A stretch of DNA of 24,000 bases from an uncultured Phycisphaerales bacterium (GCA_963728435.1 CAVSJX010000004.1:712180-736179), one strand, 5' to 3'; counted from the first letter of the stretch, positions 9,528 through 24,000 are shown. Translations and numbers: made by a program. The notes: a model not told the origin generated them from the letters alone.

Positions 9528-10565
9528 ATGCGCACTGACGACCTCGATTTCGACCTGCCGCCCGAGCTGGTTGCGCAGGAGCCCGTCCCCGATCGCTCCG
9601 CCTCCCGCTTGCTCTGCTATCGCAGGAGTAACCGCGCGATTGCCCACCGCACATTCTCGGAGCTTCCGCAACTCCTGCGGCGGGGCGATCTGCTCGTATT
9701 CAATGATACGCGTGTGCTTCCGGCAAGGTTTGCGCTTCGAAAGGCGACAGGTGGCCTCGTCGAGGCCTTGTTCCTCGGCGAGCCACAACCGGGCATTTGG
9801 CACGTCATGCTCCGGAATGTCGGCACCGGCATCGGATTGCATCTCACTTTCCCGATCAGCGATGTTACCGCGTAAATTGTGGCCAACCACGGAAGCGGCC
9901 AGTACACGCTCAAACTGTCGCCCCCGATTTCCGCGACAGAATTGCTGCAGAAATTCGGACGAATGCCCCTTCCGCCATACATCAAGCGGGCGAAGGACCA
10001 TGACCAGCGGGACGACCTTGATCGCGAGCATTATCAGACTGTGTATGCTCGCCAGGCCGGCGCCGTCGCCGCTCCGACGGCCGGCTTGCATTTCACGCCA
10101 GATCTCCTGCAGTCGCTGGATGCTGCCGGGATCGAGAAGGCTTTTATAACCCTCCACGTCGGCATGGGCACCTTCAAACCCGTGACGACCGCGACGTTGC
10201 AGGAGCATGTCATGCACTCCGAGCGCTATACCATCTCCGCCGAAGCGGCCGAGGCATTGAATCGCGCCAAGGACGACAAGCGGCGAATCATGGCGGTCGG
10301 AACGACCTCGGCGCACGTTCTGGAGAGCCAGCCGGCGGATTGTCCGTTCGAGGCGAAAGACGACCAAACGTCGATTTTCATCTACCCGCCATATCAGTGG
10401 AAGCACGTCGATGCGATGATCACCAACTTCCACCTTCCCCGCAGCACCCTGATCGCCATGATTGCGGCGTTGGCCGGTCTCGACGAGCAGCGGCGCATTT
10501 ATCACACCGCGATCGATGAGCGGTATCGCTTCTTCAGCTACGGCGACGCGATGCTCGTTGAATGA
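9528..10565 (+). pseudogene. queA: S-adenosylmethionine:tRNA ribosyltransferase-isomerase QueA, interrupted by an in-frame TAA as assembled
   Basis: ORFs 9528..9875 and 9879..10565 are in the same frame. They are collinear with QueA: MRTDDLDFDLPPELVAQEP..LLVFNDTRVLPARF..GRMPLPPYIKR..YQTVYARQAGAVAAPTAGLHF..TLHVGMGTFKPV..HVMHSERY..AVGTTS..TNFHLPRSTLIAMIAA..RFFSYGDAMLV. A single TAA at 9873-9875 sits at an aligned residue position. Confidence 0.9.
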
Positions 10566-11445
10566 GGCACGCCTGCTTCCGGTGCGCCAGCCAAGCGCGT
10601 GCCTGCCGACGATCAATAATGGCGATTGCGATGCACGTTGCCGCCAACGGAATCCATCCGAGCAGGCCGACCGGGTTCAACCAGATCAGTTTCGTTCGAT
10701 CCGGGAAGAGCATCAGCATCGACGAGGCGCCGATGGCGTTCAACGCCGCGTGTGCCAGCGATGATGCCCAAATGCTTCCCGAGCGTTCGCAAATCCATCC
10801 AAAAATGTACGACAGGAAGATGCAACCGATCAGAAACACCGGCACGCCAAGCAGGCGGTGATTCGGAAAGTTGTACCCGTTAAGATTCAGCGGCAGGTGC
10901 CAGGCGCCCCAGATGATGCCCACCACGATCGCCGCCCGCCACGGATGCTCGGCGCCGTCCACCCGCGGCTGTAAGTATCCGCGCCAGCCGAACTCCTCGC
11001 CGAACAGCAGCGGCGTTGCCAGCACGGCGTTGATGCTGAGAAAGGGGAGCACGATCAACAATGGAAGATCTGGCTTGATTGCCGGTTGCCCCATCGCCCG
11101 CAGCGCAGACGACACTGACAGGTTCGGCCATCCGATCCCCAGCGCCATCACGAACAACGTAATGACCAGCACGAAGAAATACGGGAATAGAAGCCCCAGG
11201 AGATAATACCTCCACCCGCGCAACCGGATGCCCAGACGCGCATCGGCGAAGCCCTCGCGCGTGATCCACCGCCGCACGATGAATGCCGCAATCGCCGGCG
11301 CCATGGCGCCCGGCATGATCAGCAACTGCCCGATGGGCTTCCCGAGAAGCGCCGGACGAAACACGATCGGCATCCAGCACAGCCAGGCAAGCAGGTAAGA
11401 AATCCCCACAAAGGCGATCACGCCGCGGTGATTCCGAACGCTCAT
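10534..11445 (-). CDS. CPBP-family intramembrane glutamic endopeptidase (CAAX protease-like)
   Basis: 303-aa polytopic membrane ORF with the family motifs FGEEFGWRGYL (EExxxR), IIWGAWHLPLN (FxxxH-like) and SLAHAALN. GGAGG lies 8 nt upstream of ATG 11445. The 3' end overlaps the queA 3' end by 32 bp (convergent). Confidence 0.85.
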   Translation of the reverse strand: MSVRNHRGVIAFVGISYLLAWLCWMPIVFRPALLGKPIGQLLIMPGAMAPAIAAFIVRRWITREGFADARLGIRLRGWRYYLLGLLFPYFFVLVITLFVMALGIGWPNLSVSSALRAMGQPAIKPDLPLLIVLPFLSINAVLATPLLFGEEFGWRGYLQPRVDGAEHPWRAAIVVGIIWGAWHLPLNLNGYNFPNHRLLGVPVFLIGCIFLSYIFGWICERSGSIWASSLAHAALNAIGASSMLMLFPDRTKLIWLNPVGLLGWIPLAATCIAIAIIDRRQARAWLAHRKQACLIQRASRRRS

Positions 11446-11515: not shown

Positions 11516-13393
11516 CTAAAATGGGCTGTCGCAGCGCAGTCTCAATTGCATTGGCAGCGCCGATCGCGCCGATGCGATGCGCGCCGCCCCGGTCTTTGCG
11601 TAGATCGCCGGGTTGTAATTCACGAGCAAGCGTGCGATTTCGGGTGGCGGTGGTGCCAAAGGAGGGCTCGCGGGCACCTGCAGGTAGGCCAGGCTTCGCT
11701 CAAGGATTCGCGCGGCGGCAGGCGCGGAAACGGTCCCTCCATAATGCCCCTTGGAGGGGTCCGGGTCATGAATCGCCACGCAGATTACCAACCGCGGATT
11801 CTCCGCTGGCGCTCCCGCGACGAACGAGCTGTTGTAACGTCTCGAGCTATAGGAGCCGTTGACCGCGATGAACGCCGTGCCGGTCTTGCCGAAGATGTTC
11901 CATGGGCCTGTCTCCGCGCCGCGCACGGTTCCCCGAAGCACCACATCGCACAGGATTCGCTTCATCGCCGCCGCCGTCATCGGATCAATCGCCTGCGGAT
12001 ACATCGCCGGCTCCATGGGCTTGTGCTGCTCGATGACGTTTCCATCAGCATCAAGCCAGCCCTTGACGACATGCGGCTGCACCAGCCTGCCGCCGTTTGC
12101 GTACGCACAGAACGCTCGGCACAGTTGAAGCGGCGTCGCCAGCAGCTCGTAACCCTGTGACACTGAAATCGTCGAATTCATGCCCCATTTCGGCAGTGGT
12201 CGGATCAATCCGCCGTTCTCACCCGGCATATCGATCCCGGTCTCCCGGCCAAATCCAAATCCAGTCAGCGCCTGATAGAGTCTGGCATTCCCCATCCGCA
12301 TGCCCAGCATCGACATTCCAATGTTGGACGATTTCACGAGCACATCCCACATCGCCAGCGGTCCGTAATGCTCGACGTCGGTGACGATGCGATGCCCAAA
12401 CGGGTTCCAGTGAATCGACGTGATCGGCCAGACTTCATCTGGCCGGGTGACGCCCCAGCTCATCGCCGGCCCCGCAATGAACGGCTTGATGCAGGAACCC
12501 GGCTCGTATGGATCTGTCAGGCAACGGTCGCGGCGCACCTTCGGATCCGCTTCTTCCAGATTGGATGGATCGAAGCTCGGCCAGTTCGCAAGTGCCACGA
12601 CGTCGCCGTTACGCGGATCCATCACGACCACTTCGCCGCGCTTCGCCCCATATTTTCGGCAGGCCGCGTCGAGTTCCTGCTCGGTGATCATCTGAATGTT
12701 CGCATCAATCGTCAGCACCAGGTGATGCCCCTGATCCGGCGGGACGTAGTCATCCGCCGCCACCCCGATCGACCGACGATAGGCGTCCTTGAGCACGCGC
12801 TCCGAGCCATTCTTCCCGGCAAGCTGCTTCTGGTATTTCAGTTCCAGCCCTTCCAACCCTGTCCCATCCGCGCCGGTTCCGCCCAGAAGATGTGCCGCAA
12901 TCGAGCCCATCGGGTAATAGCGTTCGTTCTGTGGTACAAATCCCACCCCGAAGATCTTGAGCTTCTGGATTGCAGTCACCGTGTCGGCGTTCAGATGCTC
13001 GGCGATCTTGACGAATCGGCTGGAACTCTTGTCCCCGAGCATCTTGGACAGTTCGAACGGGTCCTTGTCGAGAATCTTGGCCAGCTTCGCGACCGCTTCA
13101 TCCATCTCGACCAGGCTATGCCCATCCGATTGATAGCACTCCTGCATGAACTTGGGGTCCACGAAGAGTGTCCGGGTCTGGATCGTCCCCGCCATCAGCA
13201 GGCCGTTCGTATCGTAAATGCTTCCCCGGCGGGCGATGATCGTTTCCCGCTGATGCTGCTGGCGCTCGGCCCGGTCCAGCGTTGCCTGCCGGCCGATCGT
13301 CTCCAGAAAGATCACCCGGCCGATCAGCGCGGCAAAGCACGTCGTGATGACACTGATGACCACCGCCGCCCGGATTTTCGAAAAATGACCCAT
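11516..13393 (-). CDS. ftsI: Class B penicillin-binding protein / peptidoglycan D,D-transpeptidase FtsI (PBP3-like)
   Basis: ORF 11516..13435. It has an N-terminal TM helix (AAVVISVITTCFAALIGRVIF), a PBP dimerisation region, and transpeptidase motifs SCIKPF (SxxK), KSSN (SxN) and KTGTA (KTG). ATG 13393 (MGHFSKIR) is preferred over the TTG at 13435. The frame is intact. Confidence 0.9.
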   Translation of the reverse strand: MGHFSKIRAAVVISVITTCFAALIGRVIFLETIGRQATLDRAERQQHQRETIIARRGSIYDTNGLLMAGTIQTRTLFVDPKFMQECYQSDGHSLVEMDEAVAKLAKILDKDPFELSKMLGDKSSSRFVKIAEHLNADTVTAIQKLKIFGVGFVPQNERYYPMGSIAAHLLGGTGADGTGLEGLELKYQKQLAGKNGSERVLKDAYRRSIGVAADDYVPPDQGHHLVLTIDANIQMITEQELDAACRKYGAKRGEVVVMDPRNGDVVALANWPSFDPSNLEEADPKVRRDRCLTDPYEPGSCIKPFIAGPAMSWGVTRPDEVWPITSIHWNPFGHRIVTDVEHYGPLAMWDVLVKSSNIGMSMLGMRMGNARLYQALTGFGFGRETGIDMPGENGGLIRPLPKWGMNSTISVSQGYELLATPLQLCRAFCAYANGGRLVQPHVVKGWLDADGNVIEQHKPMEPAMYPQAIDPMTAAAMKRILCDVVLRGTVRGAETGPWNIFGKTGTAFIAVNGSYSSRRYNSSFVAGAPAENPRLVICVAIHDPDPSKGHYGGTVSAPAAARILERSLAYLQVPASPPLAPPPPEIARLLVNYNPAIYAKTGAARIASARSALPMQLRLRCDSPF

Positions 13394-13518
13394 GTCGTCC
13401 GATAATGATCGGCCAAACAGTCGGTCAGGCGGCAATTTTTAGGCGAGAATCTCGGCCGTTGTGCTCAGATACTTGATATCTTGAGGCCGTTTCTACGAGA
13501 GGGGCCGGGTGCGGGCCT

Positions 13519-14461
13519 ATGAGTCAAGCTGATTTGGCTGAGCTGCTCTGACTGAAGGTTCGTCCGGGCTGCGACTATTCCCTGGAGACATTACCAGCCG
13601 AAGGGGTATGCCCGGAATGCGGCCGGCCCTACGATGACAAAAACGGCCATCCTGATCGGCCGAGGCAGGGACCATTATGATGCACTTGCAGGCGGAACCT
13701 CGCCCGGCGCCGTTGTTCGAATCCTTGCATTGATCGTGCTGATTTGGATGGTCGCAAAAGAACGATGGTGGGACGACCTGGAAATGCCAGGATCCGTCGC
13801 CATTCTGGTGGTTGCAGTGGCTGGGTATTGGTATGCGCGACTGTTTTCGGCCCGCGAGCCGCGGATGCAGTTGTGGCTATCCGCAGATGGGGTAGCGCAG
13901 ATTCCATCGACGCCCGAGGCGAGGCAGTCACAACGAATTGAAGAAGATGCGTCGCTACTTACTTTGCCTATTTGCATCATCGCAATTGCGCTTCAGTCGA
14001 ATCAACGTCACGGAGTCGTTTCGCTGTCACACGGATTCCACTTAAATGGCAGGCCACAAGGACGCGCCCGGAAGCGGGGCTGCTAAACCTGGTGCGCGAG
14101 AATCACGTGGAAGCCGTATCAATTGTTCATTTGCGTAATTGCGGGTTCGATTCTAGCGATCTGGCGGCGGCGGAAGCGATGGGCCGGGATCGGGGAACTC
14201 CACTATCGACCCGCATTGTGGCCATGGACCGTGATTGAGAAGATCGAGGTCGATGATCTATCGCCGTATCGCGCACGGGTTCGCTGTCGGATGATGCGCT
14301 ATTGGTTTCGGATTGCGATACGGAGAGAGTCATTGTCGATATTGAGATTGACTACGAGGTCAAACTAGTCGAGCCGCTACGTCAGAAACTGCTCGAATGG
14401 TGGCGCGAGGCGACATCTGCACTACCCGCGGGCTCACGTTTGTCAGGCGAGGAACCAAATT
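13519..14461 (+). pseudogene. Zinc-ribbon plus transmembrane protein gene, multiply frame-broken as assembled
   Basis: Protein-like segments lie in alternating frames. ATG 13519 gives MSQADLAELL, then an in-frame TGA (13549). Next comes ..GCDYSLETLPAEGVCPECGRPYDDK (zinc-ribbon knuckle). An A5 run at 13639-13643 is the first break: reading it as A4 fuses the ribbon to TAILIGRG..VVRILALIVLIWMV..SVAILVVAVAGYWYARLF (2 TM) ..LWLSADGV... Later segments are LFICVIAGSILAIWRRRKRW..WTVIEKIEVDD (frame of ORF 14123), then SIAVSRTGSLSDDALLVSDCDTERVIVDIEIDYEVKLVEPLRQKLLEWWREA.. ending at TAG 14459-14461. This needs at least 3 indels plus 1 stop. Confidence 0.5.
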
Positions 14462-14703
14462 AGCACGCTGACGAAGCACGCGATCACGCCGATCACCAGC
14501 CACAGGGGCGGGGGTTGGCGGGGGGCGTCGGCATCTGAAATATACTTGCCGCAGTGAGGGCAGCGCTCGGCTTCCTCGGAGATCATCTGGCGACAATGGG
14601 GGCATGGCATGATGCCGGGCTCGTCGAACGAATCCATGTCGGATTCGTCCGGGAGCTCGCGGTCGTCGAACTCGTCATCATCGAAGTCGCCCTGCGCGGC
14701 CAT
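14443..14703 (-). CDS. Small zinc-ribbon membrane protein (acidic N-terminus, CxxC..CxxC, C-terminal TM helix)
   Basis: 86 aa: MAAQGDFDDDEFDDRELPDESDMDSFDE..CPHCRQMISEEAERCPHCGKYI..PPPLWLVIGVIACFVSVLIWFLA. It starts 36 nt after the FtsL-like gene and is the last gene of the rsmH-led co-directional run. Confidence 0.65.
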   Translation of the reverse strand: MAAQGDFDDDEFDDRELPDESDMDSFDEPGIMPCPHCRQMISEEAERCPHCGKYISDADAPRQPPPLWLVIGVIACFVSVLIWFLA

Positions 14704-14739
14704 GTCCTCCTTTTACGACGGCGGCGGGCGAACGCAAGA

Positions 14740-15030
14740 TCAGTCCGCAGCGGTCGGACCGATGTGGACGTCGAGCCAGTTGGGATGGCCCGGGGGAAGG
14801 GGGGTGGGAGGCGCGAGCTTGAGATTCTGGCTTACGGTCTGCTCGATGGCGTTGGGTGCGGTGGCCACGCCGATCTGAAGCTGCTCGCCCCAGAGCTTCG
14901 ACTGCATGGCCTCGATCCGGTTATGCAGGACACTATTCTGGTGCGAAAGCTCCAGATGCTGCTGGCGGAGCTGGAGGAGGTTCAGGGCGATCGCCATGAC
15001 GCTCAGAAGGCATAGGAGAAGCTTGACCAT
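14740..15030 (-). CDS. FtsL/FtsB-like bitopic coiled-coil protein (septum-formation-initiator-like)
   Basis: 96 aa with an N-terminal TM helix (VKLLLCLLSVMAIALNLL) followed directly by a heptad-like coiled coil (QLRQQHLELSHQNSVLHNRIEAMQSKL). It sits between rsmH and ftsI, as ftsL does in dcw clusters. The call rests on topology and position only. Confidence 0.5.
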   Translation of the reverse strand: MVKLLLCLLSVMAIALNLLQLRQQHLELSHQNSVLHNRIEAMQSKLWGEQLQIGVATAPNAIEQTVSQNLKLAPPTPLPPGHPNWLDVHIGPTAAD

Positions 15031-15054
15031 AGCGAATCCCTCCTTGCAAACGGC

Positions 15055-16029
15055 TCATTGCGAATCGGCAACGCTGATAGGCTTGGCGGGGAGACGGAGC
15101 TTCATGTTGACACGAATGTGGTTGGCATCGGGCAACTTGTTGAGCTCCACGATGGCGCTGACGGCGTCGGCGGTGCCGAGCTGCTCAACGGCGATTTTGG
15201 TCAGCGTGTCGCCGGGCTTGACGACGTAAATGTGCTCGGCGCTTGCGGGCGCGGCGGGGCGGGCGGAGGCTCTGGGGTCATCAACGACGACGACCTTGTC
15301 GGCGAGCTTCGGGACACTATGCGCGACCGTCGTGTTCGTGGCGGTGGGGATGATGTAGCTCTTGCCGACAATCACCTTGTCGGGGTCGTCCTTGAGCGAG
15401 GCGTTGGCGTTGATGATCAGGTCTCGATTGGTTTTCGTGTTGGCGCCGAGGAAACGGGCGGCCATGCGCGAGACGGTGTCGCCGGGCTGGGCCTGGTATT
15501 GCTTCTGACCCGTGGCGGCAAGCTGCGGCGGCTGGGCGGCGGGCTTCTGGTCCACCGGAACCACCGGTTCTTGCATTTCATTGGCGACCTGCTCAAGACT
15601 CGATTGCTTCGAGGCGTCGGCTCGGCGCGGTTCGGGAGGGGCGTTGGAATCGATGGCCGTGTTGCCCGCGATCGGCTGCTCAGGTGCGGGGGAATTTGCA
15701 GCTTGCTGCGTTTGGCGCGGTGCAGTGACGGGTTGCCCGCTGTTGGCCGGGCCGACCTGCACGACCGTCACCTGGGGCGGCTTGTGCATCATCTCTTCGC
15801 GGGTGACGACCGGCGCGTCGGGAGCGACCTGCTGGGGAACGTGGACCTGAGCGATGGGCGTCGAGGCGCCGCCGGGCACGGCGATTGCGCTGCGGACATT
15901 CTCGCCGGCCTGAACGAGGGCGGCCTGGGGCTGCTCGGTGGCGGCGGTCAGATGATCGGAAAGAAGAATTCCGATCACGATGATGAAGGCCAGGCCAACC
16001 AGAAGACCGATTTTCGTTTCCCGCGTCAT
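15055..16029 (-). CDS. Membrane-anchored protein with two C-terminal LysM peptidoglycan-binding domains
   Basis: 324 aa with an N-terminal TM helix (IGLLVGLAFIIVIGILL) and a long Pro/Gln/Ala-rich linker. Two LysM-type repeats follow: YQAQPGDTVSRMAARFLGANTKTNRDLIINANASLKDDPDKVIVGKSYIIP and YVVKPGDTLTKIAVEQLGTADAVSAIVELNKLPDANHIRVNMKLRLP. Confidence 0.8.
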   Translation of the reverse strand: MTRETKIGLLVGLAFIIVIGILLSDHLTAATEQPQAALVQAGENVRSAIAVPGGASTPIAQVHVPQQVAPDAPVVTREEMMHKPPQVTVVQVGPANSGQPVTAPRQTQQAANSPAPEQPIAGNTAIDSNAPPEPRRADASKQSSLEQVANEMQEPVVPVDQKPAAQPPQLAATGQKQYQAQPGDTVSRMAARFLGANTKTNRDLIINANASLKDDPDKVIVGKSYIIPTATNTTVAHSVPKLADKVVVVDDPRASARPAAPASAEHIYVVKPGDTLTKIAVEQLGTADAVSAIVELNKLPDANHIRVNMKLRLPAKPISVADSQ

Positions 16030-16067
16030 AGTCGCGCCTCAAAATGCGGGCGACGCAGGCGTCGCCC

Positions 16068-16964
16068 CTACAGTTTCATTGCAACACGAAGCTTGGCGGA
16101 TCGGGACCTTGGGTTGCGGGCGATTTCCGGGTCGGCGGGGGAGATGGGCTTTTTGGTGAGAACCTCGAGAAGCCCGGTCTGCTCCGCCGACCGGAACGCC
16201 TGCTTGACCATTCGATCTTCCGTCGAGTGAAAGCTGATGACCGCGAAACGTCCGCCGGGCTTGAGGTGCTTGGGCGCCTGGGCCAGGAGGGATTCGAGGT
16301 TTTCAACTTCGCGGTTCACAGCCATTCGCAGGGCCATGAAAGTTCGCGTGGCGGGGTCAATTTTCTCGTGGCCCCGAGACGGAATGGCTTGCCGAACCAG
16401 GTCAGCCAGTCGCTCCGTGGAGGTTATCGGCGCTTGACGACGGGCTTGTGCAATGTTTCTGGCGATGCGACGGGAGTAGCGCTCCTGCGCCAGCTCATAT
16501 AGGACGTTGGCCAAGTCCTCTTCGCGGAGGGCGTTGACCAGATCGGCGGCGGTTTGGGTCAGTCGACGATCAAGGCGCATGTCGAGAGGCATCGGCTGGG
16601 CGAAGGAGAGTCCGTAAGACTCCTCGAACAGTTGATTGGTGGAGACGCCAAGGTCGGCGAGCATGGCATCGACCTGGGGTTGGCCGACTTCGGTGAGAAC
16701 ATCGGGAAGCTCGGCGAAGTTGGCGTGAAAGAGGCGGACTTCACAGGGGGCATCGGCGAGGCGGGCGTTGGCGAACTCGAGGTTGCGGGGATCGACGTCC
16801 AGGCCGATGAGGCGACCCGCGGCGCCGAGGCGCTGGGCGACGGCGAAAGCGTGGCCGGCGCGGCCCAGGGTGCAGTCGATGAGCGTCTGGCCGGGCTGGG
16901 GATTGAGGTGGGAGAGAACTTCGTCGAGGAGGACGGGATCGTGGCCAGTGGGGGCGGAGTCCAT
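16068..16964 (-). CDS. rsmH: 16S rRNA (cytosine1402-N4)-methyltransferase RsmH (MraW)
   Basis: 298 aa: HDPVLLDEVLSHL..TLIDCTLGRAGHA..LIGLDVDP..FHANF..DAMLADLGVSTNQL..ERGLSF-like..PLDMRLD..HPATRTF-like (DPATRTFMALRMAVNRE)..ISFHSTEDRMVK..NPRSRSAKLR. These are canonical RsmH blocks, and the frame is intact. Confidence 0.93.
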   Translation of the reverse strand: MDSAPTGHDPVLLDEVLSHLNPQPGQTLIDCTLGRAGHAFAVAQRLGAAGRLIGLDVDPRNLEFANARLADAPCEVRLFHANFAELPDVLTEVGQPQVDAMLADLGVSTNQLFEESYGLSFAQPMPLDMRLDRRLTQTAADLVNALREEDLANVLYELAQERYSRRIARNIAQARRQAPITSTERLADLVRQAIPSRGHEKIDPATRTFMALRMAVNREVENLESLLAQAPKHLKPGGRFAVISFHSTEDRMVKQAFRSAEQTGLLEVLTKKPISPADPEIARNPRSRSAKLRVAMKL

Positions 16965-17035
16965 GGAGTTGGGGGAGTGTAGCAGGTCGGCCGGTGATTG
17001 ATGATTGGTGGTTGACCTCGGCGCGCTGAGCGACG

Positions 17036-17848
17036 TTGGGCTCGTTTCGTACTGCGCGGTGCGGATGCGGAGGAAGACTGCGTTTGCAGTTCGTGGCAGG
17101 GGTTTTGGGTTTCGTGTGGTTGGGTTGGCCTTGTTTGGGAGCGTATGGCTACTCGTTTGTCAACAACGCCGGACTGAGAGGCGTGGATCTGGTGGTTACG
17201 CCCGAGCCGGGGGCGGTGCCGGCGGCGCTGGCGCTCATTGGGCTTCTGGGCGGGGGCCGGGTGCGTCGAAGGGCGCCGTTCTCGCCGTATCGACAGGATA
17301 GGGCGGCATGGGAGGCCGCCCGGGTTGAGCAGAAATACGGCGGAGTCGGGATTCCGTTCCCCCGCGATCCCAGGCGCGGGTCCCATCCGTGCGACGACTC
17401 GGCGGTATCGGATCAGCGCTTGGCAGTCCATGCGGCGCTGAGCTGGATTACAAGGCCCTCACTTTTGCCCTGCCCGCAGGAGGGCAGGAAGAGGGGCATT
17501 CGAATCGAAATCGACCCGGCGGTCTTTCGACGCGTCGGATCGAGATCCCGCGACCTGCCGCTGGTCTTTTCGGATCGCGTCGTCCGTGACGCGAGCGAAA
17601 CGACCAACGGCCGCCGACGGGAAATCTCCCGGCTTCCGAAAGACGCCACAACCCGGTGCGCCTCCCCGAAACCTCTTGCCACGGCCAGCCGATCCAACGT
17701 CCGTGTGATCGCACTTCCAACTCCCTCCGCACTGATGAGGAATCCTTTCCTCGCGGCTGGGCTGTGCCGGCGCGGAGCATCCCTGCTGACACGCCTGCAC
17801 TTGCTGAATCGTGACAAGAACTGCGTATTCAATTGTCCACTACTTTGA
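17036..17848 (+). CDS. Hypothetical ORF on the opposite strand between rsmH and mraZ; contains a PEP-CTERM-type motif near its 5' end (possibly a small frame-broken PEP-CTERM gene plus a second ORF)
   Basis: The third-codon-position G+C bias looks high by eye along the whole 813-nt frame. The wobble-sharing antisense frame is stopped at 17413. Residues ..VVTPEPGAVPAALALIGLLGGGRVRRR (~17190-17280) match the PEP-CTERM pattern (PEP, Gly/Ala/Leu helix, RRR). ATG 17065 in the neighbouring frame gives MRRKTAFAV.., a signal-peptide-like start that would join with one indel. The remainder has no recognisable family. Confidence 0.3.
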   Translation: MGSFRTARCGCGGRLRLQFVAGVLGFVWLGWPCLGAYGYSFVNNAGLRGVDLVVTPEPGAVPAALALIGLLGGGRVRRRAPFSPYRQDRAAWEAARVEQKYGGVGIPFPRDPRRGSHPCDDSAVSDQRLAVHAALSWITRPSLLPCPQEGRKRGIRIEIDPAVFRRVGSRSRDLPLVFSDRVVRDASETTNGRRREISRLPKDATTRCASPKPLATASRSNVRVIALPTPSALMRNPFLAAGLCRRGASLLTRLHLLNRDKNCVFNCPLL

Positions 17849-17996
17849 GACCTATCCTTCCCAGGATGTGTCTCTTCGGCCCGCATGGCGGGCTCGAACG
17901 GATGTGAACCCGATACACCATTCGAAGCCGGGCGTGTTACGCACCATTCCTTGCCCGGGTTCAGTCACACCACTTATGTTCTCTGACTTCCTTTGC

Positions 17997-18467
17997 CTAT
18001 TGCGCTGGCCTGACGCTGGTTTGCTTGGCCAACTGGGCAATCTCAGGAATTCGTTCCTCCAGTGCCTGTCTTCGGAGATCCCAGTCTTTCCGATTCCATA
18101 GTTCCAAGTGATCACGCACACCGATCAGGGTGACTTCCCTGCTCAGGCCAGCCCGTTTGAGCGTTCTGTCGGGAATCAGGACGCGGCCCTGTTTGTCCCA
18201 CTCCACGCGGCTGGCCAGCGCGAAGTTCACTTGATCGAACGCCAGCACGGATTCGGCCGGCGTCAATTCCGCGGGTCGGCGAGCAACGAGTTCCTCGTAG
18301 TACCGTTCGGGGTACATCCAGGGGACCTTGTTGACGCCCACAATGAGAAAGAACGCTTCGCCGTCGCGATCGGGATCGATTTGTTTACGAACCTCAGCGG
18401 GAACAAGCAGCCTGTTCTTTTCATCAACAGTCAGCTCATACTCGCCGTATAGAAGCAGGTGTCGCAC
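17997..18467 (-). CDS. mraZ: Transcriptional regulator MraZ
   Basis: ORF 17997..18524. It has two SpoVT/AbrB-like MraZ repeats: YGEYELTVDEKNRLLVPAEVRKQI and WDKQGRVLIPDRTLKRAGL..VTLIGVRDHLELWNRKDW. GTG 18467 (MRHLLLYGEY..) fits the usual MraZ N-terminus better than the ORF-maximal GTG 18524. Confidence 0.88.
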   Translation of the reverse strand: MRHLLLYGEYELTVDEKNRLLVPAEVRKQIDPDRDGEAFFLIVGVNKVPWMYPERYYEELVARRPAELTPAESVLAFDQVNFALASRVEWDKQGRVLIPDRTLKRAGLSREVTLIGVRDHLELWNRKDWDLRRQALEERIPEIAQLAKQTSVRPAQ

Positions 18468-18611
18468 AGGGAACTCGATCCATTTATCTGAACGGCGTCT
18501 CCACTTTCTACCACCTGTCTCCACGGTTGCAAGAGAGAAATATTACCGGGCTCAAGATTTTTTAAAGAGTTAGCGCGGAAGTGGCCGAGCGGGCCGGTTA
18601 CCCACTGGTTT

Positions 18612-18632
18612 TGTGGATAACTCTGTGGAAAA
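18612..18632. promoter_or_regulatory. Two tandem DnaA-box-like 9-mers (TGTGGATAA, TGTGGAAAA) upstream of mraZ
   Basis: 18612-18620 TGTGGATAA is the exact complement of the consensus DnaA box TTATCCACA. 18624-18632 TGTGGAAAA is the complement of TTTTCCACA and fits TTWTNCACA. They are in the same orientation with 12-bp spacing, ~145-165 bp upstream of the mraZ start, next to the most AT-rich patch of the region (AAGATTTTTTAAAGAGTTA, ~18555-18572). Confidence 0.4.
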
Positions 18633-18705
18633 GATGTCGAGTTCATGTTGAGAGTCGGTGGGCTGATACCGAAGAGCTTGGGCGAGGCGGGTGGGAGAAG
18701 GCGAA

Positions 18706-19332
18706 TCAGTGGGAATTCGTCCCACCGGCAAAACCAGCGCGGGTGAGTTGCAGGGCGGCGCCAGCGATTAGAAGCAGGATGGCGGGGAGCCAGAGCCAGA
18801 GGATGGGGCGGGGGAAAGCGATGAGCGCGAGGGCGGCGGTGAGGGGGCTTGCGCCGGTGAGCCAGAGGGGCCAGGGGCCGGCGCTGAACTCGGCGTGAAT
18901 GTAATGGCAGGTGGGGATCCCCAGCACGAGCAGGTTGGCAACAGCGACGGCGGGAAGGTGCAGGCGCGGCGGGAGAGCGCTTCGCCAGAGGGCGAGCGTG
19001 AGGAGCCAGAGGGTGAGATAGGTCCAGAGGATGGCGAGGGTGGTGCAGGGCGTGGGAGAGAGCAAGCGCGTGAGGAACAAATAGGGGGCGCTTGTGACGA
19101 TCAGGGCGAGCGTCGATCGCCAATCGCGCAGGAGAAAGGGAAAGAGCATCGCGGCGGCGACAATCTGCAGCGCGAGCATTTCTTCAAGGGCGTACTGCTC
19201 GATGGGGCGCGCCAGACCTGCCGCGAAGGGATAGCGCGCCGCGGCGAGGGCGAGCGCGGTAAGTTGAATGAGAAGCCAGAAAAAGAGCGGAGCGGTGAAA
19301 GAGAGGCGCGGGGCTGAGAGGGTGGGGTTCAC
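18706..19332 (-). CDS. Polytopic membrane protein of unknown function (~6 predicted TM helices), translationally coupled to ftsQ
   Basis: 208 aa, very hydrophobic (LFFWLLIQLTALALAAA.., LALQIVAAAMLFPFLL.., LAILWTYLTLWLLTLALW.., ILWLWLPAILLLIAGAAL), with strong C-ending codon bias. Its GTG start (19332-19330) overlaps the reconstructed ftsQ stop in a GTGA arrangement. No family recognised. Confidence 0.7.
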   Translation of the reverse strand: MNPTLSAPRLSFTAPLFFWLLIQLTALALAAARYPFAAGLARPIEQYALEEMLALQIVAAAMLFPFLLRDWRSTLALIVTSAPYLFLTRLLSPTPCTTLAILWTYLTLWLLTLALWRSALPPRLHLPAVAVANLLVLGIPTCHYIHAEFSAGPWPLWLTGASPLTAALALIAFPRPILWLWLPAILLLIAGAALQLTRAGFAGGTNSH

Positions 19333-20272
19333 CGTCGGTAATCCGCTTGCGCCGCCTCGACGCTGGGGTAGGTGACGGCGTCGAAGCGGATGTCGATCCA
19401 GGGATGATTGCCATCAACCCGGCCAACTTCCTCGTAAATGGCACGAAGATACTTCAGCTTCTGCGCAGGGGAACTTCGGCGAAGACGTCTTTGGAATCGA
19501 GAGGTTGTCCCCAGCGGACCTGCGTGCCGTATTTGGTGATCAGGACGATCTGGGCTTCCCTGGGATCGCGCCGGCCGTGGAAGTTGGAGACATCCACCTT
19601 CACGATGCCCTGGGCGTAGGGCTTGTCAAAGAGAAGCTTGACCATGTCGAGCCCGGCGGCGAGATCCTGGCCGGCCCATTTGGAGCCGGGGGCGGCGGGG
19701 GGAGCCTTGACGCCTTCGATGATGCGGATGTTGAGCTTGTGGTCGCGGCCCATGACGATCTTGGGGACCTGGGGCGCGGTGTAGGCTTCGGGGAGCTTCA
19801 CGCCATCGCCATCGACGAGCCAGAAGAAGTCGCCCCAATGGACCAGGGCGACGGGGGCGCGGTAGTCGCAGTCGATGACGAGTGTGTCGGCGGGTTTTTG
19901 GCCGTAGGCGCGGCGGATCTGCTTGATCGAGCGGATCCAGGGATTGGATTTGAGGATGGCGTAGGTATCGACCAGCATCTGGTGGTCGAAGGCGGAGTGG
20001 TTGCCGGCGGGGCGGGCGAGCTTGGAGATTTCGTTTGCCAGGAAGTCGCTCATCCAGGGCGGGCGGTTGGCGAGGACGACCTTTGGAGGGCTCGCGGGGA
20101 AGACCAGATCGCGATAGACGTAGTGCTTGAGGTGGTAGAAGCCGACGCCGATCAGGGCGATGAGGATGATGGCCGCGGTCGTGTGCAGCGCGATGCGGCG
20201 GCGCAGGCGAAGGGCCTCCGGGTCTAGGGGCTTCTTGAGCTTGATCGGCTTGGCTTTGGTTTTACGGGGCAT
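19330..20272 (-). pseudogene. ftsQ: Cell-division protein FtsQ/DivIB-like (TM + POTRA-type domain), one frameshift near the 3' end as assembled
   Basis: ORF 19454..20395. ATG 20272 gives MPRKTKAKPIKLKK..RRRIALHTTAAIILIALIGVGFYHL (basic tail plus one TM helix), then ..VVLANRPPWMSDFLANEI.. / ..IRSIKQIRRAYGQKPADTLVIDCDYRAPVALV.. / ..KVDVSNFHGRRDPREAQIVLITKYGTQVRWG.., an FtsQ-like periplasmic domain. After ..DVFAEV the protein-like continuation (SPAQKLKYLRAIYEEVGRVDGNHPWIDIRFDAVTYPSVEAAQADYRR*) is in another frame. The indel lies in the GGGG run at 19467-19470 (CCCC on the coding strand). Confidence 0.7.
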
Positions 20273-20410
20273 AACCAGGCGGACTCCCTCCGGTAACGCG
20301 AACAAAGGACTGCGCCAGAAGGACTTATCGGACGAGTTGGGGGGTAATCTTAATCGGGATGGGGAAAATCCGCCGGGAGGCGCGGGGATCGCCAATGCGT
20401 CGTACGGCTT

Positions 20411-20888
20411 CTAGAGCGTGTTATGAACTTTCCACGCCCCGCGAGGGGACGCAATCGACTCAGATGCCAGGAGCGACCGCGAGAGCGGGGTCTTGATGAC
20501 CCTTTGAGCGGTTGTGACGAGGCAGTTGGGTCGATTCCGTGCCGCCTTTGGTGGGCCGGAAAGGGCATAACACGCTCTGGCCGGTGGTCATTCTGGTGGG
20601 GGTAACCTTTGGCCGCTTTGCCGGTGCGACAAATTGTCATGTTCGGACCGCCATGTCGTCAGAAGGGGCAAAAACGGGGTCGGCGGCCGGGTGGGGATGG
20701 TACGGTACTACAACGGTGAGAGTACGGTGTGAGTCGGGAGCCGAATCGGACGCAACACAGGAGCACAACATCCTGTGTTTCCGTGTTTTCATGGACGGGC
20801 TCGGGGCCGGATTGCCTGGATGAGAAGGGTCGTGGCCGTGCCCTTTCCGGCCCATCGCGGGGTGCGGAAAGTGCATAAGGCGCTCTAG
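20411..20888. repeat. Nested inverted-repeat / hairpin-rich non-coding element (four copies of a ~25-35-nt motif)
   Basis: Copy A 20411-20444 (CTAGAGCGTGTTATGAACTTTCCACGCCCCGCGA) is the inverted partner of copy D 20855-20888 (TCGCGGGGTGCGGAAAGTGCATAAGGCGCTCTAG): 29 Watson-Crick plus 2 G-U of 34. Copy B 20553-20580 (GGGCCGGAAAGGGCATAACACGCTCTGG) pairs perfectly with A over 13 bp (20413-20425 / 20566-20578). B also pairs with copy C 20839-20853 (TGCCCTTTCCGGCCC) over 15 bp. Internal hairpins are CCCC-GCGA-GGGG (20437-20448), CCGC-GAGA-GCGG (20477-20488), GGGTC-TTGAT-GACCC (20488-20502), AATCGAC/GTCGATT (20453-20459 / 20530-20536) and AACACAGGA-8nt-TCCTGTGTT (20754-20779). No convincing ORF is present. 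Confidence 0.6.
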
Positions 20889-20982
20889 TGATTCTTGCTC
20901 GATACGGTTAGCAGCCCGCATGCGGGGCGCGTTCCAGTGGCCTGCCTTTGAGGTGGAAGCCGCATGATGTGGCAAGCTGTTG

Positions 20983-21737
20983 TCAATCATGGGGATGGCG
21001 ATGGAGCAGGATGTGGGGGCGCTCCAGGCCGTTGGCGAGCATGAGGGATTCATCGGAGAGAAGCCCGGCGGTGGGGCCCTGGGCGATGAGGCGGCCGTGA
21101 TTGAGCAGCAGGACACGCGAGCAGAGCTCGACGACGAGCTCGAGGTCGTGGGTGGCGATGATGATCGTTGCGGTGAGCTGGCAGAGGAGCTGTTTGAGCT
21201 CGCGCTTGCCGGCGGGGTCGAGGCCGCTGGTGGGTTCGTCGAGGACGAGAATTTCGGGATTGCAGGCGAGGACGCCGGCGAGGCAGACGCGGCGTTTTTC
21301 GCCGAGGCTCAAGCGGTGGGGCAAGCGGTCTTCGAAGCCGGCGAGGCCCATCTGGGCGAGGCTGTGAGAGACGCGGGATTGGACGTTGGGTTCGGGGAGG
21401 CCCATTTGCGCGGGCCGAAGGCAACGTCCTCGAAGACCGTGGGGCAGAAGAGCTGGTCGTTGGGGTCCTGAAAGAGAAGGCCGACCTGGCGGCGGATCTC
21501 GGGGAGGGTTTGGCGGGTGATGGGTTGGCCGAGGACTGTGACGCCGGTGCCGGATTCGAAGTGGTCGTCGGGAAGCAAGCCGTTGAAGTGTTGGAGGAGA
21601 GTGCTCTTGCCGGCGCCGTTGGGGCCGACGATGCCGAGGCATTCGCCGGGTTCGACGCGGAACGTGATTGAGTTCAGGGCGTCGGCGGATTGGGCGTAGC
21701 GGTAGGAGAGGTCGTGGACCTCGATTGCGGGGGTCAT
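20983..21737 (-). pseudogene. cbiO: ECF-transporter ATPase CbiO/EcfA-type, one frameshift as assembled
   Basis: The N-terminal part lies in the frame of ORF 21309..22343: MTPAIEVHDLSYRY..GECLGIVGPNGAGKSTLL (Walker A) ..VGLLFQDPNDQLFCPTVFEDVAFGP. The rest lies in the frame of ORF 20983..21642: AQMGLPEPNVQSRV..PHRLSLGEKRRVCLAGVLACNPEILVLDEPTSGLDP (signature plus Walker B) ..ATHDLELV. The break is at ~21411-21416, in a short C/G run. ATG 21737 overlaps the cbiQ stop (ATGA). Confidence 0.85.
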
Positions 21738-22343
21738 CGCCACCCCCGGGCGCACATGGCGGCGTAAACGCGGTCGGCGCGGTCGGCGGAGCGGATGAAA
21801 AGCTGGCCGATAACGGTGGAGAGGGATTGCCATTGGAAGCGCCTGGTGTTGCGGAAGGTGCGGCAGGCGCGGGCGCGGTTCATGCGGTGGGCTTCGTGGC
21901 CGAGGACAAAGAGGTAGCGGTGCATCAGGAGCATCGTCGTGATCAGGAGCGAGGGGACGCGGGCGGTGCAAGACCTGGATGAGTTCCGAGACGGTTGTGG
22001 TGGCGGAGAGCAGGACGAGCGTCGCGATGCAGATCGTGCATTTGGCGATGAGGATAAGCATGACGTGAAGGCCGTGGGGTTGAAAAAGGGAGAGGATGGC
22101 GACGCCGAGGACGAAAGGTTCGAGGATGAGGACACGGCGGAGAAGATGCGGGATGGAGACGCGGCTGATGGCGAGGGCGATCAGGAGCGCGACGGCGGGG
22201 GCGATGAGATAGACGGTGTGTGACAAGGGCACCGCGACGGTTGCGAGAATCAGCACGAGTGCGGCGGCGGCTTTGATGGGTGCGGGCCAGCGGTGCGATT
22301 GCGCGGCGGGGGGAGGATCAAGGGCGATCAGGAGGTGGTGCAT
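21734..22343 (-). pseudogene. cbiQ: ECF-transporter transmembrane component CbiQ/EcfT-type, one frameshift as assembled
   Basis: The N-terminal hydrophobic part lies in the frame of ORF 21309..22343: ..IKAAAALVLILATVAVPL..APAVALLIALAIS..LEPFVLGVAILSLF..ATLVLLSATTTVSELIQVL. The C-terminal part lies in the frame of ORF 21734..22135: RVPSLLITTMLLMHRYLFVLGHEAHRMNRARACR..IGQLFIRSADRADRVYAAMCARGW, the conserved CbiQ C-terminal block. The break is at the GGG run 21960-21962. Confidence 0.8.
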
Positions 22344-23317
22344 TTGTCACCCGTGGGAGTTGTCGATGCGGGTTGCGGGACAGGGGCGGGTTTTCGCACG
22401 AGGATTCCGGCGAAGATCCACGCCAGGACGAAGACCAGGATGGTGCCGATGGCACCGGCGAGGGCGGTGGCGAGCGTTTGTGCGGAGATGCTGGGGAAGT
22501 GGTAATCCCCCAAAGGGGAGTGAATGAGAAGCGTCGCGTTTTGGAGGAAGCCGTGATCGGCGGCGGTCTTGTCCAAGCCGTCGGGGGCGTGAGAGGCGAA
22601 GGGGGAGATGAAAAGGGCCAGGCCCAGCGCGATGAGGCCGCCGTAGGCGATCAGCGGTCGGTAGGATCTGGCGGTACGCGAGATTTCGCCGGGCAGGGCG
22701 ACGAGATCGGGGCGGTTGGTCCAGACGGTTGAGAGGACGAGCGCAGTGATGATTGCTTCGCCGATGCCGATGAGGGCGTGTACGCCGGCCATGGCGGGGA
22801 AGGCAATCTTCCATGGGACGATGCCGGAGGCGGCGAGTTCGCCGGCGCAAACGATCGCGGCGAGTGCGGTGCTGACCCAGGCGGCAAACGTTGCAGCGAC
22901 GATGCGGCCGAAGAGACCTTTGACGATGCGGCTGATGGCGTAGTAGATCGCCCAGCCGAAGACGCCGCTGATGAGCGCCATGTTGAAGATGTTGGCACCG
23001 AGCGCGGTGACGCCGCCGTCGGCGAAGAGGAAGCATTGAACGATCAGGACGGATGAGATGACGATGACGGCGGCGCTGGGGCCGAGAAGGGCTGCCGTGA
23101 GGACGCCGCCGATGAGGTGGCCGCTGGTTCCGCCGGCGACGGGGAAGTTGAGCATCTGGGCGGCGAAGACGAAGGCGGCGGAGAGGCCGAGGAGCGGGAC
23201 GCGGCGAGGGGGCAGATGCAGGCGGGTTTGTCGCAATGCGACGACGAGGCCGCCGGCGGAGAGGACGCCCATTGTCACCGCAGTTTTGGCATCCAGAAAT
23301 CCATCGGGAATGTGCAT
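22328..23317 (-). CDS. cbiM: Cobalt/nickel ECF substrate-capture component CbiM fused to a C-terminal PDGLE domain
   Basis: Within ORF 22328..23359 the conserved N-terminus MHIPDGFL begins at ATG 23317 (in CbiM/NikM the mature N-terminus forms the metal site). CbiM blocks are GLSAAFVFAAQMLNFPVAGGTSGHLIGG and FADGGVTALGANIFNMA. The C-terminal region contains SPFASHAPDGLDKTAADHGF (PDGLE motif) plus a final TM helix. The frame is intact. Confidence 0.85.
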   Translation of the reverse strand: MHIPDGFLDAKTAVTMGVLSAGGLVVALRQTRLHLPPRRVPLLGLSAAFVFAAQMLNFPVAGGTSGHLIGGVLTAALLGPSAAVIVISSVLIVQCFLFADGGVTALGANIFNMALISGVFGWAIYYAISRIVKGLFGRIVAATFAAWVSTALAAIVCAGELAASGIVPWKIAFPAMAGVHALIGIGEAIITALVLSTVWTNRPDLVALPGEISRTARSYRPLIAYGGLIALGLALFISPFASHAPDGLDKTAADHGFLQNATLLIHSPLGDYHFPSISAQTLATALAGAIGTILVFVLAWIFAGILVRKPAPVPQPASTTPTGDKCTTS

Positions 23318-23472
23318 ACGCCGTCCTTCGTGAACTGGACGCGCGTGGCAAATGACCACGTGGCGGTCTTGCTGAACGTGAACTGTCAGCTAAACCATGA
23401 TAACGCCGCGCACGGAAACACAATGGCCGTTCCCAACGGTTTTGCGAAGAGGAATTTGAGACGCAGAAGCTC

Positions 23473-24000
23473 TCAGGCGATCTTCTGCCTGAGGGGCTTT
23501 TTCGCCAGTGCCGGGCCGAGGCGGACGACAGGGGTGGGCGAGGTCGCTCGCGACAGGGCACGTGTGGCCAGGCGATCGACCAGGGGGCCGAACTCGATGC
23601 CGGCGTGGGCGGCGGCTTCGGGGAGAAGGCTAGTTGGCGTGAAGCCGGGAAGCGTGTTGATCTCCAGGAGCCAGGGGTTGTTGTCGCGATCGAGCATCAG
23701 GTCCACGCGGGCCAGGTCGCGGGCGCCGGCGAGTTGGTTGGCTTTACGCGCGAGTTGACGGCAGCGATCGACCACATGAGCGGGCAGATCCAGATCGAAG
23801 TGGTGCTCGGTGCCGCAGCCTTTGTACTTGGCTTCAAAGTCGAAGAAGTCGCGCTTGACGACGATGCGGATGGGATCCAAGGGCTCTTCTTCGAGCAGAC
23901 CGACCGTCAGCTCAGACCCTTCGATCAGCTTTTCGGCCATGACTTTGGCGTACTTTTCGAGGAGGCGTTCGTATGCCTGGTCGGTCTGGGTTTGCGTGCG
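23473..24000 (-). CDS. ddl: D-alanine--D-alanine ligase, C-terminal part (5' end beyond the window)
   Basis: ATP-grasp C-terminal blocks: EKLIEGSELTVGLL..FFDFEAKY..ARVDLMLDRDNNPWLLEINTLPGFTPTSLLPEAAAHAGIEF..L. The frame stays open to position 24000. Confidence 0.88.
   Translation of the reverse strand, partial: RTQTQTDQAYERLLEKYAKVMAEKLIEGSELTVGLLEEEPLDPIRIVVKRDFFDFEAKYKGCGTEHHFDLDLPAHVVDRCRQLARKANQLAGARDLARVDLMLDRDNNPWLLEINTLPGFTPTSLLPEAAAHAGIEFGPLVDRLATRALSRATSPTPVVRLGPALAKKPLRQKIA

Follow-up and report, generated by a model that had tools for sequence, protein, structure and literature searches.

A tail-to-head division and cell wall gene cluster with lineage-specific seam elements and a GGA-hairpin RNA in Tepidisphaerales

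Main

In a 24,000-nucleotide (nt) stretch of DNA from an uncultured Phycisphaerales bacterium (GCA_963728435.1, CAVSJX010000004.1:712180-736179; hereafter the window), the tail of the division and cell wall (dcw) gene cluster lies in front of its head. The 3' block ftsW-murG-murC-murB-ddl-ftsQ is joined straight to the 5' block, which runs from the promoter Pmra and mraZ to rsmH, ftsL and ftsI. The arrangement is real, old and order-wide, because the same join recurs across loci of the order Tepidisphaerales, and misassembly is excluded. On the account that we consider probable, the join comes with lineage-specific elements at its seams, keeps a core of FtsQ, FtsL, FtsI and FtsW, and carries next to mraZ an RNA with GGA-loop hairpins that would act as a sponge.

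The canonical dcw cluster of Escherichia coli and Bacillus subtilis reads mraZ-rsmH-ftsL-ftsI-murE-murF-mraY-murD-ftsW-murG-murC-(murB)-ddl-ftsQ-ftsA-ftsZ. The internal order of both sub-blocks is kept here (the tail block being known from relatives), and, as in B. subtilis, Pmra has three GTGG[A/T]G MraZ-binding repeats at equal spacing. Unlike in the canonical cluster, the tail comes before the head, ftsA and ftsZ are absent, no murE follows ftsI, and extra genes and RNA lie at every seam.

Planctomycetes lack FtsZ, and binary fission is the mode of division in Phycisphaerales (PMC5147048). According to a 2025 survey, ftsZ, ftsB, ftsA and alr are missing in Phycisphaerae and almost all other dcw genes are kept (PMC12283558), and gene-order work describes the dcw genes of Planctomycetes as sub-clusters with retained internal synteny (PMC8871954). 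Tepidisphaeraceae isolates are flagellated cocci; they multiply by binary fission, and their peptidoglycan pathway, with ftsI, is complete (PMC13514998). The gene order reported here varies, across a whole order, the fragmented dcw clusters already known from FtsZ-less bacteria of the Planctomycetes-Verrucomicrobia-Chlamydiae (PVC) group. Like those of Planctopirus limnophila and Chlamydia (Pilhofer 2008, PMC12283558, PMC8871954), it has lost ftsZ, ftsA and ftsB, keeps ftsQ, ftsL, ftsI and ftsW together with mur genes, and is split into sub-clusters with internal synteny. Unlike in those, the sub-clusters of Tepidisphaerales are re-joined tail to head, stably across the order, in bacteria whose division proceeds by binary fission and not by budding. 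The ddl-ftsQ-X-mraZ junction and its extra genes are not described in the papers cited here, which give presence or absence and essentiality.

The source lineage is assigned by sequence similarity to the PVC group, Planctomycetota, Phycisphaerae, Tepidisphaerales, and is that of a soil or freshwater planctomycete; the G+C content of the window is 61%. Its FtsQ-like product is 100% identical to database entry P0001, which lies on a 1.36 Mb contig, and the relatives that come after it bear the name Tepidisphaeraceae or Fontivita pretiosa. All 42 related loci, drawn from one-genome-per-species GTDB contigs, are Tepidisphaerales or metagenome-assembled genomes (MAGs) of Phycisphaerae under various names. 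A first-pass annotation of the window had proposed an FtsZ-less PVC setting, which agrees with these matches and with the class-wide loss described in PMC12283558.

Gene order and its conservation

Read along the minus strand, the window has the order ddl, cbiMNQO, ftsQ, unk208, Pmra and mraZ, RNA, rsmH, LysM324, ftsL, ZnR86, ftsI, CPBP. Apart from one doubtful plus-strand open reading frame (ORF), the whole gene content from 10.5 to 24 kb is on the minus strand. The parts of the cluster are as follows.

23473-24000, minus strand: ddl, D-Ala-D-Ala ligase, 3' two-thirds, running off the window (Pfam Dala_Dala_lig_C, 3e-31)
19329-20272, minus strand: ftsQ, with an N-terminal tail, one transmembrane helix, and POTRA-like and beta domains
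18706-19332, minus strand: unk208, orphan membrane protein of 208 residues with about six transmembrane helices
18624-18632 (TTTTCCACA) and 18612-18620 (TTATCCACA), minus strand: two tandem DnaA-box consensus sites, about 90 nt upstream of the MraZ operator
18499-18532, minus strand: Pmra, with a -35-like TTGCAA (18527-18532) and a -10-like TAGAAA
17997-18467, minus strand: mraZ, 156 residues (Pfam MraZ, 6.9e-21, in two stretches; NCBIfam TIGR00242, 4.6e-21)
17326-17874, minus strand: structured RNA with conserved blocks and covariation, 5' and 3' ends not mapped
16068-16964, minus strand: rsmH (mraW), 16S rRNA m4C methyltransferase (Pfam Methyltransf_5, 1.6e-95)
15055-16029, minus strand: LysM324, bitopic protein of 324 residues with a P/Q-rich linker and two LysM domains (Pfam LysM, 1.1e-13, and a second, weaker LysM-like stretch)
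14740-15030, minus strand: ftsL, 96 residues, transmembrane helix and coiled coil, invariant TAPNA motif
14443-14703, minus strand: ZnR86, 86 residues, with an acidic N-terminus, a CPxC...CPxC zinc ribbon and a C-terminal transmembrane helix (Pfam Zn_Ribbon_1, 1.7e-5)
11516-13435, minus strand: ftsI, class B penicillin-binding protein (PBP), start codon uncertain (Pfam Transpeptidase, 8e-63; PBP_dimer, 2.4e-19)

Synteny was sampled in 40 distinct species-level GTDB loci, all Tepidisphaerales. The string ftsQ-unk208-mraZ is found in 31 of them, and ftsQ-mraZ without a detectable unk208 in 2 more. Wherever the flanks of the relatives allow, ftsW-murG-murC-murB-ddl lies upstream of ftsQ, and two loci (L004 and L044) hold the entire string ftsW-murG-murC-murB-ddl-ftsQ-unk208-mraZ-RNA-rsmH-LysM-ftsL-(ZnR)-ftsI. 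Eighteen loci keep ddl upstream; it adjoins ftsQ in 14 of these (86-362 nt between matches), and the other 4 have 1-4 kb inserted between the two genes. The ddl of the window is 56-75% identical to the ddl directly upstream of ftsQ in relatives. The head block mraZ-rsmH-ftsL-ftsI keeps its order and single strand and is interrupted by the RNA, the LysM gene and the Zn-ribbon gene. The link between mraZ and rsmH is lost in about 15 loci, and rsmH-LysM-ftsL is present in all 16 loci that keep rsmH beside mraZ. Both the ddl-ftsQ junction (L007, L027, L028 and L032) and the ftsQ-unk208 junction (L011, L012 and L031) are recurrent insertion sites, with 1-6 kb of unrelated DNA.

This recurrence leaves next to no chance that a faulty assembly, or a rearrangement confined to a single MAG, accounts for the junction. 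Such an explanation could point to an error-prone assembly, with frameshifts in ftsQ, cbiQ and cbiO and a stop in queA, and to the lack of exact matches for the RsmH and FtsQ of the window in the contig index, but the 31 loci come from independent species-level genomes, which include the complete Fontivita pretiosa chromosome and several megabase contigs. The first-pass annotation, which had placed the dcw tail directly upstream of the head, had itself raised a misassembly unique to one assembly, or unknown genes not syntenic with ftsQ and mraZ, as ways in which it could be wrong; the arrangement is shared between assemblies, and the unknown genes are syntenic with ftsQ and mraZ (31/40) and with rsmH and ftsL (16/16).

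The same annotation had read ddl, then ftsQ, a membrane protein, mraZ, rsmH, an FtsL-like gene and ftsI on the minus strand, which Pfam, the fold search and NCBIfam bear out. It had also joined mraZ to rsmH and named no gene between rsmH and the FtsL-like gene. Instead, 1,032 nt holding a conserved structured RNA that it missed separate the first pair, LysM324 lies between rsmH and ftsL, and ZnR86 between ftsL and ftsI. As it had stated, neither ftsA nor ftsZ follows ftsQ: there is none in the window, where unk208 and then mraZ come next. In both the window and L004 the gene after ftsI is not murE, and ftsW of L004 has no murD beside it; no search was made for the location of murE-murF-mraY-murD.

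Two origins of the join can be proposed. The ancestral cluster may have been duplicated in tandem, with the outer copies, and ftsA-ftsZ where the copies meet, lost afterwards, or the head block may have been relocated behind ftsQ; either route would yield the ...ddl-ftsQ / mraZ... join.

FtsQ, FtsL and FtsI

The FtsQ protein of the window has no Pfam match. Among the FtsQ-like family, Pfam FtsQ_DivIB_C matches 3 of 21 members (E of at least 0.0013), the NCBIfam FtsQ model gives 17 bits against a cut-off of 353, and a profile of the family finds no match among PDB sequences. An AlphaFold2 (AF2) model of a 72%-identical full-length ortholog has a predicted local distance difference test score (pLDDT) of 83; in it, an N-terminal helix (18-55) precedes a POTRA-like beta-alpha-alpha-beta unit and a beta domain. 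In a Foldseek search of the PDB with this model, every one of the top 8 matches is an FtsQ, with E 1.5e-8 to 5e-6, probability 1.00 and a TM-score by target of 0.46-0.54. Given a confident model and only FtsQ structures among the best fold matches, we accept the predicted product of 19329-20272 as a highly divergent FtsQ.

The ftsQ of the window has a 1-nt deletion near 19470, where it reads CCCC and relatives imply CCCCC. Its product consequently stops 45 residues early in the alignment, with the conserved C-terminus intact in the -1 frame, and the public gene call P0001 (272 residues, which gives the start) is without the same C-terminal 45 residues. These 45 residues are highly conserved in the family, and in FtsQ structures the C-terminal region binds FtsB.

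The 96-residue protein is taken to be FtsL because of model matches, its topology and its place between rsmH and ftsI. Thirteen of 14 orthologs match NCBIfam FtsL_COG5462 (best 7.4e-7), 5 match FtsL_Actino and 4 match ftsL_broad, all below the curated cut-offs. For the class B PBP, the scores of the NCBIfam SpoVD, PenA, MrdA and FtsI models are all below their cut-offs, and hidden Markov model scores do not separate it from PBP2; it was assigned to FtsI on its position after ftsL. In 8 relatives ftsI likewise comes after ftsL, directly or after the Zn-ribbon gene.

Lineage-specific membrane proteins at the seams

The slot that ftsA-ftsZ fills in canonical clusters is taken by unk208, which comes after ftsQ in 33 of the 40 loci and is itself followed by mraZ in 31 of these. 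The stop of ftsQ and the start of unk208 share 4 nt (ATGA or GTGA) in 9 loci and, by sequence inspection, also in the window, where the TGA of the frame-restored ftsQ overlaps the GTG of unk208 (GTGA); in most other loci the two genes lie within 40 nt. An exhaustive search returned 673 cluster representatives, all of about 200-250 residues and all unannotated (a word-indexed search gave 5). Identity among relatives is 28-49%, with W19, Q23, Q56, P65, P83, W109, Y144 and E148 conserved. The protein has no Pfam or PDB relative, and a match to EmrE (E 0.06) was taken as chance between hydrophobic helices. An AF2 model made from 5 sequences has six long helices at a pLDDT of 58 and was not used for a fold search.

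LysM324 always lies between rsmH and ftsL, inside the rsmH-ftsL-ftsI unit, in 15 genomes and the window. Its overall identity is 34-52%, and its first 26 residues, MTRETKIGLLVGLAFIIVIGILLSDH (window 15952-16029), which comprise the N-terminus and the transmembrane helix, are nearly invariant in 15 orthologs. A near-invariant transmembrane helix suggests contact with a specific partner. A search with this N-terminus gave short fragments only and no wider distribution. In its build (short cytoplasmic N-terminus, transmembrane helix, long P/Q linker and C-terminal peptidoglycan-binding module) and in its place inside a division operon, LysM324 is like FtsN of E. coli. It differs in having no sequence similarity to FtsN, two LysM domains and no SPOR domain, and conservation in the membrane anchor and not in a periplasmic helix. 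The likeness is one of functional analogy only, not homology. ZnR86 has a narrower distribution and is found between ftsL and ftsI only in the window, L004, L006 and L009.

Linkage suggests that unk208, LysM324 and ZnR86 may be divisome parts. Several points weigh against this and against a divisome at this locus. Conserved order can persist for other reasons; ftsQ and unk208 are split by 3-6 kb insertions in three loci, and one locus has no room for unk208. The loss of ftsZ and ftsA in the source genome rests on class literature, without a genome search. The dcw genes of P. limnophila, ftsQ, ftsI and ftsW among them, are non-essential (PMC12283558, PMC6952346), and even the core may thus not drive division.

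It is conceivable, if somewhat unlikely, that the three proteins are passengers whose envelope or housekeeping roles have nothing to do with division and that, as in Planctopirus, the cluster is only what is left, in fragments, of a dcw set that can be dispensed with. The non-essentiality in P. limnophila is in line with this, as are the fast evolution of unk208 and its lack of recognizable motifs, its parting from ftsQ in three loci and the patchy occurrence of ZnR86. By contrast, ftsQ and unk208 overlap by 4 nt, which suggests that their translation is coupled, the membrane anchor of LysM324 is nearly invariant and the gene stays strictly inside the rsmH-ftsL-ftsI unit, and Phycisphaerae, unlike the budding Planctomycetia, have septating binary fission and a full peptidoglycan set (PMC5147048, PMC13514998).

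A structured RNA with GGA hairpins after mraZ

The mraZ-rsmH gap (16965-17996) holds no credible ORF. A coding reading (ORF 17413-17886) was rejected, given that tblastx frames are equally similar, conserved blocks are short and separated by insertions or deletions, and the G+C content at third codon positions (GC3) is atypical. In a blastn comparison of the gap with the related loci, a block of about 76 nt is 75-87% identical in at least 18 loci and folds as a closing stem with three hairpins. This terminal four-way junction lies at 17326-17417 in the window and has ACGGAU and ACGGAA loops; further GGA-loop hairpins are predicted at 17847-17874, 17776-17787, 17737-17752 and 17575-17594. When 18 sequences are aligned with MAFFT, 94.4% of the cells are paired and 10 pairs are compensatory; none of 500 shuffles is as good, and slid controls reach 40-47%. 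A model-guided alignment of 33 sequences gives 95.5% pairing and compensatory changes in 16 of 26 pairs, likewise unmatched in 500 shuffles, in an alignment that leans towards the model. An alternative junction fold (GGG 37-39 with CCC 78-80) was rejected at 90.7% versus 94.4% pairing, its fourth pair failing in 14 of 18 sequences. Frequent G-U pairs place the RNA on the gene strand. The rest of the mraZ-rsmH interval has more conserved blocks and folds better than shuffles (z -4.8).

A covariance model finds exactly one copy in each of 33 loci and in the window, in every case on the gene strand and 207-880 nt after mraZ; a usable exact sequence pattern recovers 15 of the 34 known copies. Two of the copies in relatives are at L009:12745-13551 and L004:12862-12957. 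A hairpin after the junction is frequent and not consistent, and in the clade L023-L033 a conserved motif, GCGAACAGTTTGCTAAC, lies about 20-45 nt after the junction with a hairpin before it; the motif may mark the 3' end of the RNA or a processing site.

In the window and in 16 loci, the RNA shares a strand with rsmH and lies 93-372 nt upstream of it. This placement, and a closed four-way junction that resembles an aptamer, would suit a cis-acting leader (a riboswitch or protein-bound attenuator) of the rsmH-LysM-ftsL-ftsI operon instead of a sponge acting in trans, for which the mraW RNA motif of Actinobacteria would be a precedent as a leader. We think a leader unlikely, for the RNA also sits beside mraZ in about 15 loci without rsmH downstream, where the next gene is variable or convergent, and in L032, where rsmH has been inverted away, there is no second copy with the relocated gene. 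The RNA thus goes with mraZ. The number of GGA hairpins per locus, which ranges from 0 to 10, also suits a titrating RNA better than an aptamer.

Counts of the GGA motifs in 34 loci gave 299 ANGGA where 98 were expected, and 86 CANGGAYG where the expectation was 4.7. Strict ANGGAN hexaloop hairpins with a stem of at least 4 bp number 99 against 2.6 expected, with 1 in a 26 kb control of ftsQ coding sequence. Locus L009 has about 9 tandem GCCGC-ACGGAC-GCGGC hairpins. The commonest loop is ACGGAU, closed by C-G, and some loops are AUGGAC or AUGGAU. Constant loops on variable stems point to a protein that reads the loops. To our knowledge, the only well-known reader of ANGGAN-type loops is CsrA/RsmA/RsmE, for which the high-affinity consensus is CANGGAYG. 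We therefore see in the RNA a candidate titrating RNA (sponge) of the CsrA type, a possibility that we rate just under even.

The RNA matches no Rfam family at the gathering threshold, and none relevantly at E up to 10. Two sub-threshold matches are suggestive: RsmW (19.6 bits, gathering 52, E=1) and TwoAYGGAY (19.4 bits, gathering 43, E=6), both of clan CL00106. With the titrating RNAs of the Csr/Rsm systems (CsrB, RsmY/Z/W) and TwoAYGGAY it shares many hairpins with variable stems, constant A-N-G-G-A-N loops and a copy number that varies between species. It differs from the Csr/Rsm RNAs in that it reaches no gathering score, occurs in Planctomycetota, is fixed beside mraZ and has a partner protein that is only putative; we know of no conserved terminal four-way junction in those RNAs. 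The mraW RNA motif (Rfam) of Actinobacteria is a structured RNA upstream of mraW. The present RNA is like it in lying in the dcw head region upstream of rsmH/mraW, and unlike it in having no relevant Rfam match and in following mraZ, not rsmH, where the two are separated.

Several observations speak against a CsrA sponge. No csrA was found in about 700 kb of Tepidisphaerales DNA, which falls short of whole genomes; consensus scans of 16800-18800 found no promoter or terminator; and four loci have no strict ANGGAN hexaloop hairpin. The lack of a csrA in that DNA would also fit hairpins with GGA or UGGA loops that bind another protein, or MraZ itself as an RNA decoy beside its gene, which we consider very unlikely. 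The RNA is strictly linked to mraZ, MraZ recognizes GTGGAG repeats, and AUGGAC and AUGGAU are among the loops, but MraZ is known as a binder of double-stranded DNA, and ACGGAU closed by C-G fits the CsrA/RsmE consensus. In addition, Planctomycetes are listed among the phyla with CsrA-FliW (PMC4682653).

The mraZ promoter and its DnaA boxes

The mraZ start is placed at the GTG at 18467, and not at the GTG at 18524 of the ORF list, because a TTG or GTG start is conserved there in the alignment. Conservation of Pmra was assessed in an alignment of 40 mraZ upstream regions. Three predicted MraZ-binding repeats, GTGGAG-acag-GTGGTA-gaaa-GTGGAG (18499-18524), overlap the -10-like TAGAAA and are conserved in relatives; they are direct repeats with a 10-nt period. 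The MraZ-binding repeats of B. subtilis are a GTGG[A/T]G triple with 4-nt spacers (bioRxiv 10.1101/2022.02.09.479790). Pmra and its operator lie directly at the seam, which fits two blocks that stay separate transcription units. As judged from these sites, the two dcw blocks remain separate regulatory units and mraZ keeps its own promoter.

The tandem DnaA boxes are conserved in nearly all of the 40 loci as 'gTTaTCCAC....ttaTcCaC'; many loci have a third copy, which is inverted, and an A/T tract (18551-18569) near the boxes is conserved as well. Perfect or near-perfect boxes and an A/T tract, conserved order-wide, are also what a chromosomal replication origin (oriC) would offer. We hold an origin here to be highly improbable: there is no GC-skew switch at 18.6 kb, the skew being positive from 13 to 24 kb, the flanking genes run in the same direction, and there are only 2-3 boxes, beside a promoter. 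Because of the missing switch, the boxes are read as probably a DnaA input into Pmra.

Insertions, spacers and broken genes of the window

The remaining features of the cluster region are these.

22328-23359, minus strand: cbiM-PDGLE, and 20983-22343, minus strand: cbiQ and cbiO, together a Co/Ni transporter of the energy-coupling factor (ECF) type
20273-20982, minus strand: 710-nt spacer, not conserved, of which the last ~60 nt match the ftsQ upstream regions of relatives
13436-14442, no strand: 1 kb spacer between ZnR86 and ftsI, G+C content 0.56, no similarity to relatives
13634-14086, plus strand: doubtful ORF, GC3 0.57 versus 0.72-0.83 in real genes, sub-threshold DUF6232 match
10534-11445, minus strand: CPBP (Rce1-like) intramembrane protease (Pfam Rce1-like, 2.3e-18)

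The transporter is identified by Pfam CbiM (5.5e-57), PDGLE (CbiN-like, 7e-14), ABC_tran split over two ORFs and a weak CbiQ. None of the 40 relatives has cbiMNQO between ddl and ftsQ. Since ddl adjoins ftsQ in most relatives and inserts of 1-4 kb lie there in others, cbiMNQO is read from this comparison as a window-only insertion at an often-hit site. The 710-nt spacer folds with a z of -3.5 (20 shuffles) and has no Rfam match at E<=1. It holds inverted-repeat pairs (20413-20433/20558-20578 and 20552-20567/20839-20854) and, over 20413-20854, three copies of a unit of about 16-27 nt, TGGGCCGGAAAGGGCATAACACGCTCT, in alternating orientation. The unit is found nowhere else in the window or in 44 loci and may be a scar of the cbiMNQO insertion. 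The 1 kb spacer before ftsI likewise has no Rfam match. A CPBP match after ftsI is seen in no relative; convergent queA takes that place in L004, L019 and L043.

By comparison with the relatives, the transporter, both spacers, the plus-strand ORF and the CPBP gene do not belong to the conserved design. The first-pass annotation was right that a transporter and a structured spacer (given as about 0.6 kb) lie between ddl and ftsQ, and that CPBP and not murE follows ftsI in the window; it erred in counting these insertions, absent from relatives, in the design. The opposite-strand gene that it placed between the FtsL-like operon and ftsI is the doubtful ORF, for which the low GC3, the sub-threshold DUF6232 match and the absence of the region in relatives argue against a real gene.

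Four genes of the 24 kb are disrupted: ftsQ, cbiQ and cbiO are frameshifted (by three-frame translation for the cbi genes), and queA (9528-10565) has an in-frame stop at 9873-9875. The related megabase contigs are from long-read MAG projects, and homopolymer or long-read assembly errors are a likelier source of the frameshifts and the queA stop than pseudogenes.

Away from the cluster, the plus strand carries genes for 23S rRNA (3' 1.6 kb) and 5S rRNA at 1-1898, which thus run against the dcw genes; the CPBP gene, where the cluster ends, is about 8.6 kb away. The window has no tRNA genes.

Discussion

Planctomycetes divide without FtsZ in a manner still to be explained, and Phycisphaerae are the members among them that have kept binary fission. 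Here, a single odd locus is extended to an order-wide conserved gene set, in which unk208, the LysM-anchored protein and the Zn-ribbon protein are candidates for division roles. FtsQ, FtsL and FtsI, together with FtsW as known from relatives, would form a septal peptidoglycan-synthase core for FtsZ-independent binary fission, with unk208 and the LysM protein as accessory membrane partners. The RNA would be made with or just after mraZ and would bind many copies of a CsrA/RsmA-type protein as a sponge. Pmra retains the canonical MraZ operator and has DnaA boxes in addition, upstream of it.

In its most far-reaching form, this would be a divisome of FtsQ-FtsL-FtsI/FtsW with unk208, an FtsN-like LysM324 and ZnR86 that works independently of FtsZ, FtsA and FtsB, together with a non-proteobacterial CsrA sponge under a Pmra controlled by MraZ and DnaA. 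We regard the full combination as improbable; if true, a sponge driven by Pmra would couple post-transcriptional control on a global scale to the cycle of replication and division. CsrA-titrating RNAs have been characterized mainly in Proteobacteria. If the RNA is confirmed as one, the principle of CsrA titration would extend to the PVC group and be linked there to the division cluster. The orphan proteins and the GGA-hairpin RNA are parts worth follow-up.

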